The notes under the pieces are model-generated. The model saw only the letters and a program-made list of their open reading frames with translations. It did no database searches and was not told the DNA's origin. The translations under genes were made by a program, and so were the position numbers. Below are positions 29,461 to 35,841 of a DNA stretch of 64,000 bases, piece after piece (position 1 is the stretch's first letter; each line of letters begins with the position of its first letter). The DNA comes from Acidimicrobiia bacterium (GTDB lineage: Bacteria; Actinomycetota; Acidimicrobiia; Spongiisociales; SHLN01), in contig JBFKDW010000005.1 of the NCBI GenBank assembly GCA_041619515.1, positions 2,323-66,322 of the forward strand. Direction: 5' to 3'.

Positions 29461-29886
29461 TCAGAAGTCGAGATCGAACAGCGGGTCGGTGATCATGAAG
29501 TCGAGCTCGGTGCCCACTGTGGCCAAGAACCCGAACAGGATGAGTGCTCCGCCCGCCATCGACAGGTTCTTCATGAACATGCTCATCTCGACTTGTCGGG
29601 TCATCGGATCGGTGTCGGTCCAGAAGTGGTGCACCATGAAGCCGGCGGCCAGTGAGTAGGCCGCCAGTCCGAGGGCTGCCAGATCGGCCCAGATGCCGAG
29701 AATCACTCCCGCCCCCCCGAGGAAGATGAGGGCGCCGCTGAGCTGGGTGAGGATCTTGGCGCTGGGCACTCCCCGTGATTGGGCGTAACCGGCCGTTCCC
29801 TCCGTCTGCATGAGGTGCCCGGCCGATCCGGCTCCCACAAAGATGAGGGCAAAGAGAATTCGACCGATCAGGATGACCACGCTCAT
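29461..29886 (-). CDS. DoxX family membrane protein
   Basis: GRILFALIF, HHFW, FMKNLSMAGGAL. Confidence 0.88.
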   Translation of the reverse strand: MSVVILIGRILFALIFVGAGSAGHLMQTEGTAGYAQSRGVPSAKILTQLSGALIFLGGAGVILGIWADLAALGLAAYSLAAGFMVHHFWTDTDPMTRQVEMSMFMKNLSMAGGALILFGFLATVGTELDFMITDPLFDLDF

Positions 29887-29954: not shown

Positions 29955-30311
29955 CTACAGGGTGGCCGCCCGCTGCGCGATCGAGGCGACATCGTCGAGC
30001 GCCGCCCTGCCCGACCTTCGCAGCAGCACTCGTCCGCTGCCGTCGACCACCAGCGCCACCGGGAGCGAACGGATCGGGGGGCCCGGCAGGTCCAGGCTCC
30101 CGACTTCTGTCACCCGCGGTTGCACGCCCGCCCTCCGCAGTGCCCGCTCAACCGGCCCGCACAGGGCGCAGCCGGGCCCGGTGACGAGCGTCACGCCGGC
30201 AGCAAGCGGCAGCCGGATGGCCCCTCTTCTCCGCTGCCACCATCCCGCCGCGATCCAGGCGCCGCCCCCGATGGCCACCAGCACCAGCAACCGGAGCACC
30301 AGCGGTGTCAT
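29955..30311 (-). CDS. Membrane-anchored thioredoxin/glutaredoxin-like protein
   Basis: ATG 30311 overlaps the DUF4395 stop; N-terminal TM then VTGPGCALCGP (CxxC), IRSLPVALVVDGSG. Confidence 0.72.
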   Translation of the reverse strand: MTPLVLRLLVLVAIGGGAWIAAGWWQRRRGAIRLPLAAGVTLVTGPGCALCGPVERALRRAGVQPRVTEVGSLDLPGPPIRSLPVALVVDGSGRVLLRRSGRAALDDVASIAQRAATL

Positions 30312-30724
30312 CGGTCGATCACCCGCTCGTAGAAGATGCACCCGACGCAGATGCGCGTGGTGGCGGCCAGCAGGGCCAGTGAGAAGACGATCAGCGCCAG
30401 CGTCCAACCGGCAACCGACCATCCAATGGCGAAGAGGGCCGACGCTGCGCTGAGGAACACCACTCCCAGCAGCTGGGCAAACCTCGGCGGTCCGGCTTCC
30501 TCCGTCTCGATCGGACGGCGCCGGCGAGGCCGGACCAGCCGCAGATACGCCTGTGTGAACAGGCCCCAACCGGGCCCGGCGAATCGAGTGAGAGCGAGGA
30601 CGCCGGCGGTGACGGCCACCAGCGGCCACCAGTGGAGCGCGAACGCCACACCCACCGCCGCCGCCACCATTGCCTGGTTGAAGCGGGGCACATTCACGTC
30701 GACCCGGGCGGAGGCGGCCGTCAC
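30308..30724 (-). CDS. DUF4395 membrane protein
   Basis: VDVNVPRFNQ, GPPRFAQLLG, C-terminal ICVGCIFY; GTGA overlap with the metZ stop. Confidence 0.88.
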   Translation of the reverse strand: MTAASARVDVNVPRFNQAMVAAAVGVAFALHWWPLVAVTAGVLALTRFAGPGWGLFTQAYLRLVRPRRRRPIETEEAGPPRFAQLLGVVFLSAASALFAIGWSVAGWTLALIVFSLALLAATTRICVGCIFYERVIDR

Positions 30725-31887
30725 AGTGCCTCCAGTGAGCTCGTGAGGTCCTCCTTGAGGTCGGCGACATCCTCCAGGCCTACCGAGATGCGGATCACAC
30801 CGTCGGTGATCCCCGCCGCCGCCCTGGCATCGGCACCAATACGGCGGTGGGTCGTCGTTGCCGGGTGGGTGATGAGGGTCTTGCTGTCACCGAGGTTGTT
30901 GGAGATGTCGATGATCCGGGTGGCGTTCAGCACCCGAAACGCAGCCTCCTTGCCGCCGTCCACCTCGAAAGTGGCCACCGTCCCACCTCCGGCCATCTGC
31001 TCCTTGGCGAGAGCCGCCTGCGGGTGCGAGGGCAGGCCCGGGTACCACACCCGGCGCACCCCGGGGGTGGCCTCGAGAAAGGCCGCCAGGTCGAGCGCGG
31101 ACGCTGTCTGGTGCCGGACCCGCAGCGCCAGCGTCTCCAGGCTCTTGACCAGCACCCAGGCGTTGAACGGGCTCAGCGACGGGCCGGTATGGCGCATGAA
31201 GGGCTGCAAGCGCTCGGAGATGTACTCGGCGCTCCCGAGGATCGCTCCGCCCATTGTCCGGCCCTGGCCATCTATGTGCTTGGTCGTGGAGTAGACCACA
31301 ACGTCGGCGCCCAATTCGAGGGGCTTCTGGAGGACGGGAGTGGCGAAGACGTTGTCGACCACCACCGTGGCTCCCGCGGCGTGGGCGAGATCGGAGACTG
31401 CCGAGATGTCGACCAGAGCCTGCATGGGGTTGGAGGGCGACTCGAAGAAGACCACCCGGGCCGGCTCGGCCAGCGCCTCCTCCCATTCGTCGAGTGAGGT
31501 ACCGGAGACGAAATCGGTGTGGATCCCCCACCGCGGCAGCAACTGGTCGAGGATGATGTAGCAGGATCCGAACAGATCCCGGGAGGCCACCACCCGGTCG
31601 CCCGACTCCAGCAGAGCAGCCAATGACCAGAAGACCGCCGCCATCCCGGTGGCGGTAGACCAGGCGGCTTCGGCGCCTTCGAGGAGCCGCAACCGCTCTT
31701 CGAACATGGACACGGTGGGGTTGCCGTAGCGGGAGTAGAGATAGTGGTCGACGTCGCCGGCGAAGGATGCTTCGGCTTGCTCGGCCGACTCGTAGACGTA
31801 GCCGGAGGTCAGGAAGAGCGCCTCGGCGGTCTCGTCGAAGCCGGATCGCGTCTGGCCTCCCCGTACCAGGTGGGTGTCCTGCCTCAT
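30721..31887 (-). CDS. metZ: O-succinyl/O-acetylhomoserine sulfhydrylase
   Basis: ETAEALFLTSGYVY, YSRYGNPTV, TGMAA, ESPSNP, DNVF, YSTTKHIDGQGRTMGG, ISNNLGDSKTLITHPATTTH; SD AAAGGAG. Confidence 0.92.
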   Translation of the reverse strand: MRQDTHLVRGGQTRSGFDETAEALFLTSGYVYESAEQAEASFAGDVDHYLYSRYGNPTVSMFEERLRLLEGAEAAWSTATGMAAVFWSLAALLESGDRVVASRDLFGSCYIILDQLLPRWGIHTDFVSGTSLDEWEEALAEPARVVFFESPSNPMQALVDISAVSDLAHAAGATVVVDNVFATPVLQKPLELGADVVVYSTTKHIDGQGRTMGGAILGSAEYISERLQPFMRHTGPSLSPFNAWVLVKSLETLALRVRHQTASALDLAAFLEATPGVRRVWYPGLPSHPQAALAKEQMAGGGTVATFEVDGGKEAAFRVLNATRIIDISNNLGDSKTLITHPATTTHRRIGADARAAAGITDGVIRISVGLEDVADLKEDLTSSLEAL

Positions 31888-31992
31888 GTCGTACTCCTTT
31901 GCTCGGTGGGACGTCACGACCGGATAAACCGGCTGCGTGCGGTGGGGCGACGAACGGGTGGAGGGAGGGCTCTCGGGGTGGTGTTCGTCTGG

Positions 31993-32073
31993 TCAGGAGT
32001 GCGTGGCATAGGCGCTTGCACCCGGGTGGACCACCCGAGAGCGTTCACAGCGACACATATGCCGGCAAGTCAT
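31993..32073 (-). CDS. Putative leaderless Met/Cys-rich leader peptide MTCRHMCRCERSRVVHPGASAYATHS upstream of metZ
   Basis: Manual translation, too short for the ORF track. 2 Met + 3 Cys in the first 9 codons; ATG lies 8 nt after a -10 hexamer. Confidence 0.55.
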   Translation of the reverse strand: MTCRHMCRCERSRVVHPGASAYATHS

Positions 32074-32081
32074 GGCGCGAG

Positions 32082-32110
32082 AAGGTACCCCGTTCTCCCG
32101 GCAATGTCAA
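32082..32110 (-). promoter_or_regulatory. Housekeeping sigma70-type promoter for the metZ leader
   Basis: Minus strand TTGACA (32110-32105), 17-nt spacer, TACCTT (32087-32082). Confidence 0.75.
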
Positions 32111-32164
32111 TGGTCCGTGCCACAGCGCCGGCATTTCGCACTACGATGAGTGGCAGACGAAGCG

Positions 32165-32247
32165 TTTATCACGAGCGGTGGAGGGACAGGCCCTGTGAAA
32201 CCGCGGCAACCGGCCTCGTGGCACGGTGCCAATGCCTGATCGATGAG
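32165..32247 (+). ncRNA. SAM-I (S-box) riboswitch aptamer upstream of metH
   Basis: TTATCACGAGCGGTGGAGGGACAGGCCCTGTGAAACCGCGGCAACC...GGTGCCAAT...GATGAG. P1 TTATC/GATGA, kink-turn P2, GGCAACC/GGTGC P3. P4 appears absent. Confidence 0.92.
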
Positions 32248-32311
32248 CTGCCGGCGAGCGGTTCTCTCCGCTCGAGGCGCTCCGTGAGCGTTTCGAGAAA
32301 GGAGAGATCAT

Positions 32312-32338
32312 ATGACCGGGTGCGATCCGACATCATGA
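32312..32338 (+). CDS. 8-codon uORF (MTGCDPTS) whose stop overlaps the metH start
   Basis: SD AAAGGAG 32298-32304, ATG 32312, TGA 32336-32338 overlapping metH ATG 32335-32337. Confidence 0.45.
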   Translation: MTGCDPTS

Positions 32339-35300
32339 GTACGTACCTCGACGCCGTCACCTCCGGCAAGGTCGTTATCTTCGACGGTGCCACCGGGACA
32401 TCGCTTCAGCAGTTCGGCCTCACGGCCGACGATTTCGGCGGGCCGACCTTCGAGGGATGCAACGAGCTGCTCAGCGTCAACCGGCCCGACGTGGTCGAGG
32501 CTGTGCACCGCTCGTTCTTCGACGTCGGGGTGGACGCCACCGAGACCAACACGTTTGGGGCGTTCTCAGTCCCGCTGGGCGAGTACGGGATCTCTGAGCG
32601 GGCGTACGAGCTGGCGGCCGCCGCCACCGAGATCGCCCGCCGGGTCACCGACGAGTACATCGCCGCCGACGGCCGGTCCCGCTGGGTGGCCGGATCCATA
32701 GGGCCCGGCACCAAGTTCGCGTCCCTCGGCCAGATCCGGTACGCCGACCTGCGCGACGGGTACGAGGTGGAAGCCGCCGGGCTCATCGACGCCGGCGCCG
32801 ACGTCCTGCTCATCGAGACTCAGTTCGATCTGCTGGGGGCCAAGGCCGCCATCAACGGTGCCCGGCGCGCCATGTCTCACTCGGGGCGGGAGGTCCCGCT
32901 CCAGGTTCAAGTCACCATCGAATTGACCGGCCGCATGCTGCCCGGCACCGAGATCGGCGCCGCTCTGACCACCCTCGACGCCATGGGTGTCGACGTGGTC
33001 GGAATCAACTGCGCCACCGGGCCCCAGGAGATGTACGAGCCGCTTCGCTACCTGGCCGCCTATTCACGGCTTCCGGTCGCGGTGGTCCCCAATGCCGGGC
33101 TTCCACAGGTGATCGACGGTGAAATGGCCTACGACCTTCCCGCCGGCGCCCTCGCCGAGCACCTCGAGACGTTCATCAGCGAGTTCGGAGTCCAGGTCGT
33201 CGGCGGATGCTGTGGGACGACGCCCGAGCACCTGCGGGCGGTGGTCGAGCGCTGTCGCAGCCTGACTCCGGCCACCCGCACACCTACTCACATTCCGGGG
33301 GCGGCCTCTACGTACTCGCCCGTCTCCTTCAAGCAGGACACCTCCTTCCTCATCATCGGCGAGCGAACCAATGCGAACGGTTCGCGGGCTTTCCGGGACG
33401 CCCTGCTCGCCGAGGACGTCGACGCCTGCGTGCGAATTGCCGAGGACCAGGTCGCCGAATCCGCCCATCTCCTCGATCTGTGTGTCGACTACGTCGGACG
33501 AGATGGCGTCGCAGACATGAACCTGCTGGGAGGTCGCTTCGCCACCGAGGTCACCGTCCCGGTCGTGCTGGACTCGACCGAGCCCGAGGTGATGCAGGCC
33601 GGCCTCGAGCTGATCGGTGGCCGCAGTGTCCTCAACTCGGCCAACCTCGAGGAGGGTGATGCTCCCGGCTCCCGGTTGGATCGAGTGCTGCGCCTGGCGA
33701 AAGAGCACGGGTCCGCCGTGATCTGCCTGCTCATCGACGAACGCGGCCAGGCTCGCACCCTCGATTGGAAGCTCGAGATCGCCCATCGGATACACGATCT
33801 GGCAGTGGAACGGTACGGTCTCGAGCCCTCCGATCTCATATTCGACCCTCTGACCTTTCCCCTCAGCACCGGAGACGACGACCTGCGCGCCGACGCCATT
33901 GAGACCATCGAGGCAATCAAGCGGATCAAGCAGGAGCTGCCCGGAGTCTCGACCGTGCTGGGGGTATCCAACGTCTCGTTCGGTCTCTCCCCGGTGACCC
34001 GGCGGGTCCTCAATTCGGTGTTTCTGCACGAATGCGTTGAAGCCGGCCTCGACGCGGCCATCATCCATGCCGGCAAGATGTTGCCGCTCAACAAGATCCC
34101 CGACGACCAGCGACAGGTGTGCATGGACCTCATCTACGACCGCCGCCGCTCGGGCTACGACCCACTCGAGGCCCTATTGGCTCTCTTCGCCGACGCGGTC
34201 GAGGAGTCGAGCGTCGTGGAGGATCGCTCAGGGTGGCCGATCGAGCGCCGTCTCAGCGAGCGGATCGTCGACGGCAACCGGGGCGGGATCGAGAACGAGC
34301 TGGACGAGGCGCTGGCGAACGGCCGGGGGCCACTCGAGATCATCAACGACGTCCTCCTGGAAGGCATGCGAACAGTGGGCGAGCTTTTCGCCTCCGGCGA
34401 GATGCAACTGCCTTTCGTGCTGCGGTCGGCCGAGACAATGAAGGCCGCCGTCGCCTATCTCGAGCCCAAGATGGAGAAAGAGGACAGCGCTACCCGCGGA
34501 TCCATCGTGCTCGCCACCGTGCGGGGCGACGTGCACGATATCGGCAAAAACCTCGTCGACATCATCCTGACCAACAACGGGTTCAAGGTGCACAATCTCG
34601 GCATCAAGGTCGAAATCGACGACATGGTCCGCACCTTCCAGGAGGTGGACGCCGATGCCATCGGGATGAGCGGCCTGCTGGTCAAGAGCACGCTCGTCAT
34701 GCGAGACAACCTCGACGAGCTCACCCGGCGCGGCCTCGACCACGTCCCGGTGCTGCTGGGTGGAGCGGCGCTGACCCGCTCGTACGTGGAAGATCAGCTG
34801 CGGGCCAGGTACAACGGGCACGTCTACTACGGGAAGGATGCCTTCGCCGGGCTCGATGCCATGCACTACATCGTCGGCGGCGAAACCGGGCCGGAGCCGG
34901 CCAGGCTCCGCGGACGCACCCTCCCAGCTCACAGCGAGCAGGAAGAGGAGGTCTCTGCGACGGATCTCCCCGCTCGGGCGCCCTCGGTGGCAACCGACAA
35001 TGAGATCTTCGTGCCGCCGTTTCTCGGCAGTCGCATCGTCAAGGGCATCCCGCTCCATGAGGTCGCCGCCTATCTGAACGAGACGGCCCTGTTCCGGAAC
35101 CAGTGGCAATACCGGCCCGAATCCGGGGAGACGGATGCCGATTTCAAAGACCGGCTCCGCCTGCTGCTGCGGGAGCAGATGGCGGTGGCGCGGGCCGCCG
35201 ATCTGCTGGTTCCCGAGCTGGTCTACGGCTACTTCCCGGCCAACGGGGACGGCGACGACCTCGTTATCTGGGAGGACGAGAGCCGCTCATCCGAACGGAT

Positions 35301-35841
35301 GCGCTTCACGTTCCCCCGCCAGCACGACGACCGGTTCCTGTGCATCGCCGACTTCTTCCGTCCGATGGACCAGGAGGTCGACTACGCCGCCTTCCATCTC
35401 GTCTCGGTGGGCGAGCGGGTATCCCAGCGGACTGCCGAGTTGTTTGCTGCGGACCGGTACAACGACTACCTCCTCCTCCACGGCCTGGGAGTGGAGATGG
35501 CCGAGGCGCTGGCCGAGTACTGGCATTGGCGCATCCGGGCCGAGTGGGGATTCGTCGATGAGGATGGCCCGTCGCTCGGGGGCCTCTTCAAGCAGAAGTA
35601 CCGGGGAGGCCGCTATTCGTGGGGCTATCCGGCCTGTCCCGATCTGGAAGACAACGAGAAGGTGGCAGATCTGCTCGGAGCCGAGCGCATCGGCATCAGC
35701 GTTGGAGAAGACACCGGCTACCAGTATCAGCCCGAGCAGTCCACCTCCGCCCTGATCTGCCATCACCCACAGGCAAAGTACTTCATCGCCAAGAAGCCCC
35801 GCCAGATCCGGGCCGAGGCCGACGCCAAAGGGAAGCGGTAA
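32335..35841 (+). CDS. metH: Cobalamin-dependent methionine synthase
   Basis: FDGATGT, GSIGPG, GINCATGP, GGCCGTTPEH, IGERTNANGS, B12 motif GDVHDIGKNLV, activation domain RYSWGYPACP, PEQSTSAL. True start ATG 32335, not 31744. Confidence 0.97.
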   Translation: MSTYLDAVTSGKVVIFDGATGTSLQQFGLTADDFGGPTFEGCNELLSVNRPDVVEAVHRSFFDVGVDATETNTFGAFSVPLGEYGISERAYELAAAATEIARRVTDEYIAADGRSRWVAGSIGPGTKFASLGQIRYADLRDGYEVEAAGLIDAGADVLLIETQFDLLGAKAAINGARRAMSHSGREVPLQVQVTIELTGRMLPGTEIGAALTTLDAMGVDVVGINCATGPQEMYEPLRYLAAYSRLPVAVVPNAGLPQVIDGEMAYDLPAGALAEHLETFISEFGVQVVGGCCGTTPEHLRAVVERCRSLTPATRTPTHIPGAASTYSPVSFKQDTSFLIIGERTNANGSRAFRDALLAEDVDACVRIAEDQVAESAHLLDLCVDYVGRDGVADMNLLGGRFATEVTVPVVLDSTEPEVMQAGLELIGGRSVLNSANLEEGDAPGSRLDRVLRLAKEHGSAVICLLIDERGQARTLDWKLEIAHRIHDLAVERYGLEPSDLIFDPLTFPLSTGDDDLRADAIETIEAIKRIKQELPGVSTVLGVSNVSFGLSPVTRRVLNSVFLHECVEAGLDAAIIHAGKMLPLNKIPDDQRQVCMDLIYDRRRSGYDPLEALLALFADAVEESSVVEDRSGWPIERRLSERIVDGNRGGIENELDEALANGRGPLEIINDVLLEGMRTVGELFASGEMQLPFVLRSAETMKAAVAYLEPKMEKEDSATRGSIVLATVRGDVHDIGKNLVDIILTNNGFKVHNLGIKVEIDDMVRTFQEVDADAIGMSGLLVKSTLVMRDNLDELTRRGLDHVPVLLGGAALTRSYVEDQLRARYNGHVYYGKDAFAGLDAMHYIVGGETGPEPARLRGRTLPAHSEQEEEVSATDLPARAPSVATDNEIFVPPFLGSRIVKGIPLHEVAAYLNETALFRNQWQYRPESGETDADFKDRLRLLLREQMAVARAADLLVPELVYGYFPANGDGDDLVIWEDESRSSERMRFTFPRQHDDRFLCIADFFRPMDQEVDYAAFHLVSVGERVSQRTAELFAADRYNDYLLLHGLGVEMAEALAEYWHWRIRAEWGFVDEDGPSLGGLFKQKYRGGRYSWGYPACPDLEDNEKVADLLGAERIGISVGEDTGYQYQPEQSTSALICHHPQAKYFIAKKPRQIRAEADAKGKR

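Follow-up and report, generated by a model that had tools for sequence, protein, structure and literature searches.

The gene metZ in a 64,000-nucleotide stretch of an Acidimicrobiia genome (GenBank assembly GCA_041619515.1, contig JBFKDW010000005.1, positions 2,323 to 66,322; this whole stretch is called the window below) is preceded on the minus strand by a leader that we read, with a probability of roughly 0.65, as a ribosome-mediated translational attenuator sensing the supply of charged tRNA-Cys and probably also that of Met. The leader contains a short open reading frame (sORF) of 26 codons plus TGA (MTCRHMCRCERSRVVHPGASAYATHS; 31993-32073, with ATG at 32073-32071 and TGA at 31995-31993), in which five of the first nine codons specify Met or Cys, and its RNA can form alternative pairings that lead up to the Shine-Dalgarno (SD) sequence of metZ. 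The same leader is present in 25 loci, nearly all labelled Acidimicrobiia, and lies in the window and its relatives upstream of, and co-oriented with, genes of sulfur metabolism. An earlier, sequence-only reading of the window had described a TTGACA-N17-TACCTT promoter, a Met/Cys-rich ORF running from ATG to TGA, and 105 nucleotides (nt) between its stop and the metZ ATG (31887), all of which were found in place; it had further proposed that a ribosome stalled just upstream of a pairing segment switches access to the metZ SD. Comparison with related leaders argues strongly for a switch of this kind, while several particulars listed with it are revised below. All results are computational and concern conservation, reading-frame signatures, pairing potential, and stall geometry, from which we infer the transcription start, stalling, the direction of regulation, and any contribution of Rho.

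The leader family and its reading-frame signatures

Members of the family were collected with a DNA pattern anchored outside the Met/Cys codons (13 true members), with a pattern in which the pairing segment a, described below, was left free (seven more, amid ~26 chance matches in coding regions), and via MetZ proteins with the leader left unpatterned (four more: L289, L291, L298, and L299). Most family statistics are given over 21 members, and the 25-locus counts add these last four; the members are phylogenetically non-independent, and pattern-based retrieval inflates the apparent invariance of segments a, b, and c. A covariance model of the family recovers all 25 loci (61–89 bits) and finds no match in ~270 other loci, including Mycobacterium, Nocardia, Streptomyces, and alphaproteobacterial metZ/rhodanese regions; a search of ~290 loci with this model gave no further members, and its four weak matches (E 0.2–0.9) lie inside a regulator coding sequence. 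Among species-representative genomes, the nearest MetZ proteins (L001 and L002, 83–85% identity) have the same layout with the leader conserved; relative to the window, their leaders carry a 3-nt indel that keeps the frame, and the arrangement of -35, N17, -10, 8 nt, and ATG is retained. The leader is also present at L051, where MetZ is 64% identical. A metagenome scan with MetZ returned nothing closer than 77% and no leader copies, and a rhodanese-anchored scan of Actinomycetota found only unrelated Cys-rich sORFs and not this module.

The window promoter consists of the -35 hexamer TTGACA (32105-32110) and, 17 nt further on, the -10 hexamer TACCTT (32082-32087), which is of the TANNNT type and stands 8 nt before the sORF ATG. 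A consensus promoter scan did not call this promoter because TACCTT matches TATAAT at only 3/6 positions. Across the family, TANNNT is found 7–12 nt before an ATG or GTG in 20/21 members, with no SD between the two and with intervening bases that are C-rich and lack GGAG, and a TTGNNN hexamer lies 16–18 nt upstream of the -10 in nearly all members. The sORF would thus be leaderless or nearly so, with transcription starting at or within a few bases of the AUG, and its translation would proceed without an SD.

Several features of the reading frame point to translation of the sORF. The family sORFs are 25–29 codons long, with one of 41, and end at the same place with an in-frame stop that may be TGA (14), TAA (4), or TAG (3); all indels within them are multiples of three, and ATGs in the start region are in frame in 27 cases and out of frame in one. 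Over 16 non-redundant N-termini (193 codons), 46/193 codons (24%) read as Cys in the sORF frame, compared with 20 and 7 when either of the other two is read, and shuffled sequences give 9.4 ± 2.9, with 0/20,000 reaching 46. Internal Met codons show the same bias, with 17 in the sORF frame and 0 and 4 in the two alternatives.

The sulfur codons also keep a register. Counting codons back from an invariant Ser codon (TCT), position -3 is Cys in 19/21 and Met in 2/21 members (23/25 and 2/25 when the four later members are added); among the 21, Cys stands at position -5 in 14, and position -6 holds Met in 10 and Cys in 7. Since position -3 is Cys in 23/25, Cys is probably the main sensor amino acid. 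In the window, the sulfur codons after the start are Cys3 (32067-32065), Met6 (32058-32056), Cys7 (32055-32053), and Cys9 (32049-32047), the last of which occupies position -3 and is the candidate sensor codon. For Met, the earlier proposal of dual Met/Cys sensing becomes narrower: the enrichment of Met is family-wide and otherwise unspecific to metZ leaders, yet both leaders with Met at -3 (L166 and L172) are those of metZ.

Pairings, folding models, and rival explanations

The RNA that follows the sensor codons can be divided into segments, each with a defined partner or partners. In the order of the minus-strand transcript, these are the 5' strand of a helix termed P0 (32052-32069), in which the variable N-terminal codons pair with a variable stretch (32017-32003); segment a (CUCUCGGGUGG, 32031-32041), an invariant core with the alternative partners b and e; segment b (CCACCCGGGUGC, 32018-32029), the 5' part of which pairs with a and the 3' part of which, GGGUGC, pairs with c as an anti-sequestrator; the variable stretch itself (32003-32017), which is the 3' strand of P0 in the closed form and the loop of the b:c hairpin in the open form; segment c (GCACUCCU, 31995-32002), an anti-SD at the 3' end of the sORF whose last U is the first base of the stop codon; segment d (GACGAAC, 31983-31989), the 5' strand of a helix termed S3, within the footprint of a terminating ribosome; segment e (ACCACCCCGAGAG, 31970-31982), which lies in the S3 loop and is complementary to a; segment f (GUUCGUC, 31949-31955), the 3' strand of S3; and the metZ SD (AGGAGU, 31893-31898), which is complementary to c.

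The pairings between these segments are well kept. The a:b hairpin has 8–10 base pairs (bp), with standard pairs in 97% of alignment cells, and standard pairs are found in 100% for GGGUGC of b with c and in 99% for a:e; segment e reads AGAGAG in L289. The GGG of segment b serves both a:b and b:c; it is substituted only in L298 and L299, where a G-to-A change is met by a U in either helix. GGGUGC and GCACUCC are separated by a variable stretch of 12, 15, or 18 nt and no other length, and segment c is invariant in 25/25. All substitutions in paired columns are compatible with pairing, and the four members retrieved via MetZ added only single pairing-compatible changes. A plausible account of this near-invariance is that each segment has two partners and that the chain is anchored on the SD, which must fit the ribosome. 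The SD itself is family-specific, reading AGGAGU(G)(C): the base after GGAG is U in 20/21 members, compared with 10/79 other genes from the same loci taken as controls, GGAGUG occurs in 13/21 against 3/79, and complementarity between the sORF end and the SD is conserved over 6–9 nt. For P0, the window duplex between the N-terminal codons and the loop is worth -14.5 kcal/mol, and the family mean is -16.2 kcal/mol against -9.9 kcal/mol with shuffled loops (P ≤ 0.05 in 17/21), so that the sORF can fold back on itself, its 5' half zipped onto its 3' half and a:b forming the tip. The S3 helix (d:f) is present in all 21 members, with a mean of 7.5 bp against 4.6 in shuffles, and occurs in nine distinct complementary variants among the 21, with two further ones in L298 and L299; on the alignment, these variants are true covariation.

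The individual pairings listed in the sequence-only reading fared differently. The local hairpin is present and is drawn by RNAfold with 8 bp (CUCGGGUG/CACCCGGG) and a 3-nt loop, and the longer-range pairing of the same segment (32041-32031 with 31982-31970; 8 bp, a bulge, and 4 bp) was likewise borne out. A third partner, CCACCCG at 31961-31955, is present in the window and absent from its closest relatives. The helix GACGAAC/GTTCGTC (31989-31983/31955-31949) is present, conserved, and covarying, as given above for S3; the idea that it simply competes with the longer-range pairing was given up because the two share no sequence, and a:e together with d:f, with b:c nested, amounts to an H-type pseudoknot topology. 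CCCTCCCTCC, the anti-SD proposed earlier, is found in the window and is absent from the closest relatives, and the conserved anti-SD is segment c instead. The absence of a U-tract was confirmed, with neither a U-tract nor an intrinsic terminator in 31700-32500; segment f is followed by none. L264 is the sole member with a U-tract (UUUUCU) after S3, and it has a 146-nt spacer with several copies of AAUCGCC. Between the sORF stop and the SD (31899-31992), the window has a C-rich, G-poor spacer (C 0.46, G 0.21) that contains d, e, f, and one non-conserved hairpin, and this composition recurs in all 21 members (C ~0.42, G ~0.22), with the sORF and the coding sequence balanced.

In folding models, the combination of a:b (with P0) and c:SD, in which the SD is sequestered (conformer Y), is the RNAfold minimum free energy structure in 15/21 members, and the mean probability that GGAG is unpaired is 0.08. 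Conformer X, the RNAalifold consensus of a:e and b:c, averages 5.4 kcal/mol higher with no credit given for S3. The 191-nt window leader alone folds no better than its dinucleotide shuffles (z -0.34). To mimic a stalled ribosome, the mRNA was kept single-stranded from the 5' terminus through the 12th nt after the first base of the -3 codon; opening the 8-nt SD then cost 5.5 instead of 7.5 kcal/mol on average, with a drop of more than 1 kcal in 13/21 members; when b:c complementarity was removed in silico by mutating the 3' part of b, the masking effect was cut to 0.8 kcal. When the -3 codon occupies the A site, the entry channel of the ribosome holds the mRNA at ~+11 to +15 from the P site, and this is where a:b has its base.

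The attenuator that we favor would combine these elements as a relay. Transcription would start at or near the sORF AUG, and the sORF would be translated without an SD. With ample Cys-tRNA, the sORF would be read fast and P0 and a:b would re-form behind the ribosome; in this closed, OFF form, P0 and a:b would tie up the GGGUGC of b, and c would pair with the AGGAGU of the metZ SD. Translation of metZ and the following genes would then be poor, and the transcript would probably be exposed to Rho, given the C-rich, G-poor spacer that all members share. When Cys-tRNA is scarce, the ribosome would wait with the -3 codon (Cys9 in the window) in its A site, and its leading edge would cover or unwind P0 and the base of a:b, freeing GGGUGC; in the resulting open, ON form, GGGUGC would pair locally with c, the SD would be released, and metZ and the three genes after it would be translated. 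This direction of regulation is suggested because the targets are genes of sulfur uptake and assimilation and because the mycobacterial cysA2 leader works in this way. A more far-reaching version, which we regard as tentative and rather doubtful, is that the cassette is a modular, transplantable, and ribosome-set bistable switch, in which e captures a (a:e and d:f as a pseudoknot with b:c nested) as a latch that keeps the SD open or Rho off after the ribosome has left, and in which the -3 codon, mostly Cys and in one metZ lineage Met, sets the amino-acid specificity, re-addressing the cassette to other sulfur genes.

Several observations weigh against the attenuator. The alignment of relatives, which had been named as a check, shows conserved Met/Cys codons and a covarying S3 and contains no compensatory double substitutions in a:b, b:c, c:SD, or a:e, partly because a, b, and c were held constant by the retrieval patterns and partly because every segment is tied to two partners. 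Segment e and S3 are conserved, but the relay does not need them. The equilibrium effect of masking is modest and is absent in 8/21 members, and in the ssuA group a 12-bp c:SD helix stays closed in the model even with masking. The distance from -10 to ATG (7–12 nt, and 8 nt in the window) slightly exceeds what a strictly leaderless start would call for, and the window codons Cys3, Cys7, and Cys9 (MCRC) are not consecutive; adjacent Cys codons occur in some relatives (e.g., L164, L167, L169, L170, L173, L174, L264, and L299). In addition, the host genomes are nearly all metagenome-assembled genomes (MAGs) of uncultured Acidimicrobiia/Actinomycetota.

Among the rival explanations, a mainly transcriptional output, in which the sORF senses Cys, Rho-dependent termination in the spacer or early metZ decides, and SD sequestration is the trigger or a secondary effect, is unlikely, though not far-fetched. 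It would fit the spacer, which resembles a Rho utilization (rut) site in composition, the missing intrinsic terminator, the position of the S3 5' strand under a terminating ribosome, and the proposal of Rho for actinobacterial Cys leaders (Seliverstov et al. 2005, PMC1262725). However, composition alone does not establish a rut site or show Rho binding, a ribosome stalled ~50 nt upstream would leave the spacer uncovered, and the conserved complementarity between the sORF end and the family-specific SD points to control of translation initiation; the transcriptional and translational mechanisms are also non-exclusive. We consider it improbable that the logic is reversed, with ribosomes that finish the sORF unwinding c:SD and activating metZ by translational coupling, so that stalling at Cys codons lowers expression. 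The sORF does extend across the anti-SD, which means that c:SD and S3 have to be opened by any ribosome that terminates on it, and the equilibrium models of the ssuA group, closed even when a is masked, agree with such coupling. Against this, limitation should raise the expression of genes for sulfur acquisition and assimilation, Cys limitation induces the homologous mycobacterial cysA2 operon (Canestrari et al. 2020, bioRxiv 10.1101/834739), and coupling gives no role to a register-fixed sensor codon beside a:b or to the conserved b:c.

Three further alternatives were considered. That the leader binds a metabolite or protein, as a riboswitch-like pseudoknot built from a:e and d:f with b:c nested in which the ORF is incidental, is very improbable: ~35 nt are indeed nearly invariant across paralogous leaders, the RNAalifold consensus is a:e and b:c, S3 covaries, and the three helices fit an H-type topology, but interchangeable stops, indels in multiples of three, Cys and Met codons concentrated in a single frame, and a fixed -3 position would be surprising in a non-coding aptamer, and two partners per segment with an anchor on the SD would explain the invariance. 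The leader also matches no Rfam family: on the metZ strand, 31888-32110 has no Rfam 15 match even at E ≤ 10, no leader-strand match reaches the gathering score in the window or its relatives, and four other members gave none at E ≤ 1. A functional small protein or nascent arrest peptide (SRVxxPGA...HS) that matters in its own right is a slighter prospect still. The C-terminal two thirds of the peptide are conserved, but this conservation is at the nucleotide level, includes third codon positions, and continues past the stop codon, so that the constraint on this part of the sORF is on RNA and not on protein; the N-terminus is variable except for its Cys/Met codons, and substitutions in the variable stretch fall, by eye, on all three codon positions. 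Least probable of all is a DNA operator for a roadblock repressor downstream of the promoter, which was considered because the leader carries a perfect 10-bp palindrome, CACCCGGGTG, at ~+47 to +56. In 7/21 members (six ssuA leaders and L264), this reads CGCCCGGGTG, which breaks the DNA palindrome and keeps the RNA pair (U-A to U-G), and a palindrome follows in any case from the need of b to complement both a and c.

Targets and genomic setting

The idea that the element belongs to metZ alone was not upheld, as the same leader also heads cysA2-like two-domain rhodanese operons (some of them with metZ), ssuA, which encodes an SsuA-family sulfonate-binding protein (TIGR01728, 221 bits), and a DUF4395 operon. 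In the window, the target is metZ (30721-31887, minus strand), encoding an O-succinylhomoserine sulfhydrylase of 388 amino acids (aa; PF01053; NF005870 at 667 bits, cutoff 618), followed on the same strand by genes for a DUF4395 protein (30308-30724, with a GTGA overlap at the metZ stop), a CxxC thioredoxin-like protein (29955-30311), and a DoxX protein (29461-29886). Their overlapping or near-abutting frames make it likely that the four genes form one operon. The order metZ-DUF4395-CxxC is also found in L289 and L293-L299, and relatives with MetZ of 78–81% identity (L293-L296, L298, and L299) have an operon of rhodanese (278 aa), rhodanese (134–144 aa), metZ, DUF4395, and CxxC protein. In L298 and L299, a divergent leader heads such a five-gene operon, which begins with the cysA2-like rhodanese; these copies lie at 770-970 in L298 and 750-960 in L299, segment b reads GAG instead of GGG in both, and GCACUCC is duplicated in L298.

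One member lies on a complete chromosome (OY970200), where the leader precedes the DUF4395 gene (L168). At L168 6359-6445, an SD-proximal ATG opens a 28-codon ORF with an ATGA overlap at the DUF4395 start, which may be a second small ORF or an assembly frameshift. The metZ of the same chromosome (L292) has no leader directly upstream and belongs to an operon of 3'-phosphoadenosine 5'-phosphosulfate reductase (cysH), uroporphyrin methylase (cobA), and metZ. The submitter labels of L001/L161, L280, and L286 (Gammaproteobacteria, Acidobacteriota) clash with Acidimicrobiia relatives bearing near-identical leaders, and these are probably mis-binned or mislabelled MAGs. The window itself comes from an Acidimicrobiia-like actinobacterium and not from a relative of Mycobacterium or Streptomyces. 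The window holds no second copy of the leader and no other Cys-rich small ORF with a -10-like hexamer 5–11 nt upstream; one other Cys-rich ORF that was examined in context lies inside a permease coding sequence.

On the opposite strand, 90 bp from the metZ leader, an S-adenosylmethionine (SAM) riboswitch of the SAM-I family (RF00162, 72 bits, 32163-32249, plus strand) precedes metH, which encodes a cobalamin-dependent methionine synthase (ATG at 32335). The metH gene is divergent from metZ and has a -10-like TACGAT at 32142-32147 (plus strand), so that two promoters stand back to back within ~40 bp. An ORF of 1365 aa (31744-35841, plus strand) is metH with a spurious 5' extension spanning the intergenic region into the opposite-strand metZ start. 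The metH riboswitch is kept in L001, L002, and L175 (confirmed with Rfam) and, by sequence similarity, in L171, L289, and L291. Elsewhere in the Acidimicrobiia, at L003 (2246-2329) and L008 (891-975), a SAM-I riboswitch heads a rhodanese-domain gene with metZ behind it. Control of metZ has thus been exchanged between the SAM riboswitch and the proposed ribosome-sensed leader across Acidimicrobiia lineages, because rhodanese-metZ is under SAM-I elsewhere while the clade of the window has the leader directly before metZ.

Comparison with known systems

No paper describing the element was found, and a full-text search on leaderless cysteine attenuation in Acidimicrobiia came back empty, in agreement with the earlier statement that nothing of this kind is described for metZ. 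The logic of the proposed relay is that of the 1:2/2:3/3:4 leaders of erm/cat and trp, with the SD as segment 4. As in the attenuators of trp, his, leu, and ilv, a leader peptide would carry codons for a pathway product just upstream of alternative hairpins; here, however, there is no GC-rich hairpin with a U-tract, and the 3:4 element is an SD sequestrator. In tnaC-tnaAB, attenuation is Rho-dependent and involves ribosome arrest at the stop codon of the leader. In both systems, an untranslated C-rich spacer comes straight after a short leader ORF, and an intrinsic terminator is missing. The Acidimicrobiia leader shows no sign of arrest at the stop codon or of a free amino acid as effector, and its Cys codons and a/b/c relay have no counterpart in tna.

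The erm/cat leaders (ermCL-ermC and the cat leaders) are also built of four segments. A ribosome stalled on or next to segment 1 disrupts 1:2 there, which lets segment 2 pair with 3 and releases segment 4 with its SD, and control acts on translation initiation with no terminator; the mutually exclusive pairings of this scheme are found here in silico, and the stall site at segment 1 has its parallel in a sensor codon fixed at -3 in 25/25. The systems differ in that an antibiotic acts there together with the nascent peptide, while the signal here would be the supply of an amino acid (as its tRNA), to which both the regulatory codons and the target genes point, and in that the sORF here reads through segments 1 to 3 and ends in the anti-SD, with a start that is probably leaderless.

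Methionine-synthesis genes are known to be under cis-acting RNA control by SAM riboswitches (SAM-I, RF00162; SAM-II), and SAM-II precedes metZ in alphaproteobacteria (PMC9373788). The metZ leader, in contrast, matches no aptamer (Rfam 15 gave no match on its strand for SAM-I, SAM-II, SAM-IV, SAM-V, SAM-VI, or the amino-acid leader families), and its proposed sensor is a translating ribosome that responds to Cys- or Met-tRNA rather than to SAM. In Actinobacteria, no RNA element was reported for methionine operons, and Cys leader peptides were reported without a recognisable mechanism (Seliverstov et al. 2005, PMC1262725). If the attenuator is real, it would be the first RNA-level regulator of metZ in Actinobacteria besides SAM riboswitches.

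The nearest functional parallel is the 'Cys ribulon' of mycobacteria, in which polycysteine leaderless sORFs such as Ms5788A/Rv0815A act as attenuators (Canestrari et al. 2020, bioRxiv 10.1101/834739 = Mol Microbiol 114:93). Both kinds of leader have an unannotated, short, Cys-rich ORF without an SD at the 5' end of the mRNA, both precede sulfur/cysteine operons that include cysA2-type rhodanese genes together with DUF4395-type and thioredoxin-like genes, and in both the sORF RNA pairs with the SD of the next gene (here in silico), pairing that a stalled ribosome is proposed to prevent. The criterion used to search for the mycobacterial sORFs was a run of two or more Cys codons (Canestrari et al. 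2020, bioRxiv 10.1101/834739), which the window leader does not have. There is no sequence relationship between the two, and the mycobacterial-type sORFs seen before rhodanese genes lack segments a, b, and c; judged from their sequences, the Acidimicrobiia leader would work like the mycobacterial ones yet be non-homologous to them. In other Actinomycetota, two Cys-rich sORF types, both unrelated to the leader, were seen before cysA2-like rhodanese genes (across L220, L225, L226, L229-L231, L238, L240, L242, L179-L182, and L186), one being the mycobacterial type, which reads '..RRA(V/I)DLCRV..CCCC' in Mycobacterium, Gordonia, Jatrophihabitans, Actinoplanes, and Acidothermus, and the other reading '..MIPxRLC(G/C)C..'. 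In Ms5788A, the C-terminal Cys tract is itself the anti-SD, whereas the Acidimicrobiia leader has N-terminal Cys codons and a relay from a:b to b:c. The Acidimicrobiia leader also differs in being one near-invariant module over at least four operon types, in having S3 and segment e, in controlling metZ, and in that Met can occupy the sensor position.

Cys attenuation sensed by the ribosome on leaderless sORFs has so far been demonstrated only in mycobacteria, and the Acidimicrobiia are a deep-branching and largely uncultured actinobacterial class. The proposed attenuator would, if true, extend the 'ribulon' idea beyond one genus. It would also offer a set of naturally occurring variants that differ in sensor codon (Cys or Met), target gene, and SD clamp strength, as well as a compact and well-defined model for chaining alternative pairings to an SD, and it flags unannotated regulatory sORFs that genome pipelines overlook in metagenome-assembled genomes. 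In mycobacteria, each locus appears to have evolved its own sORF, whereas in the Acidimicrobiia one almost invariant cassette stands before several sulfur operons.

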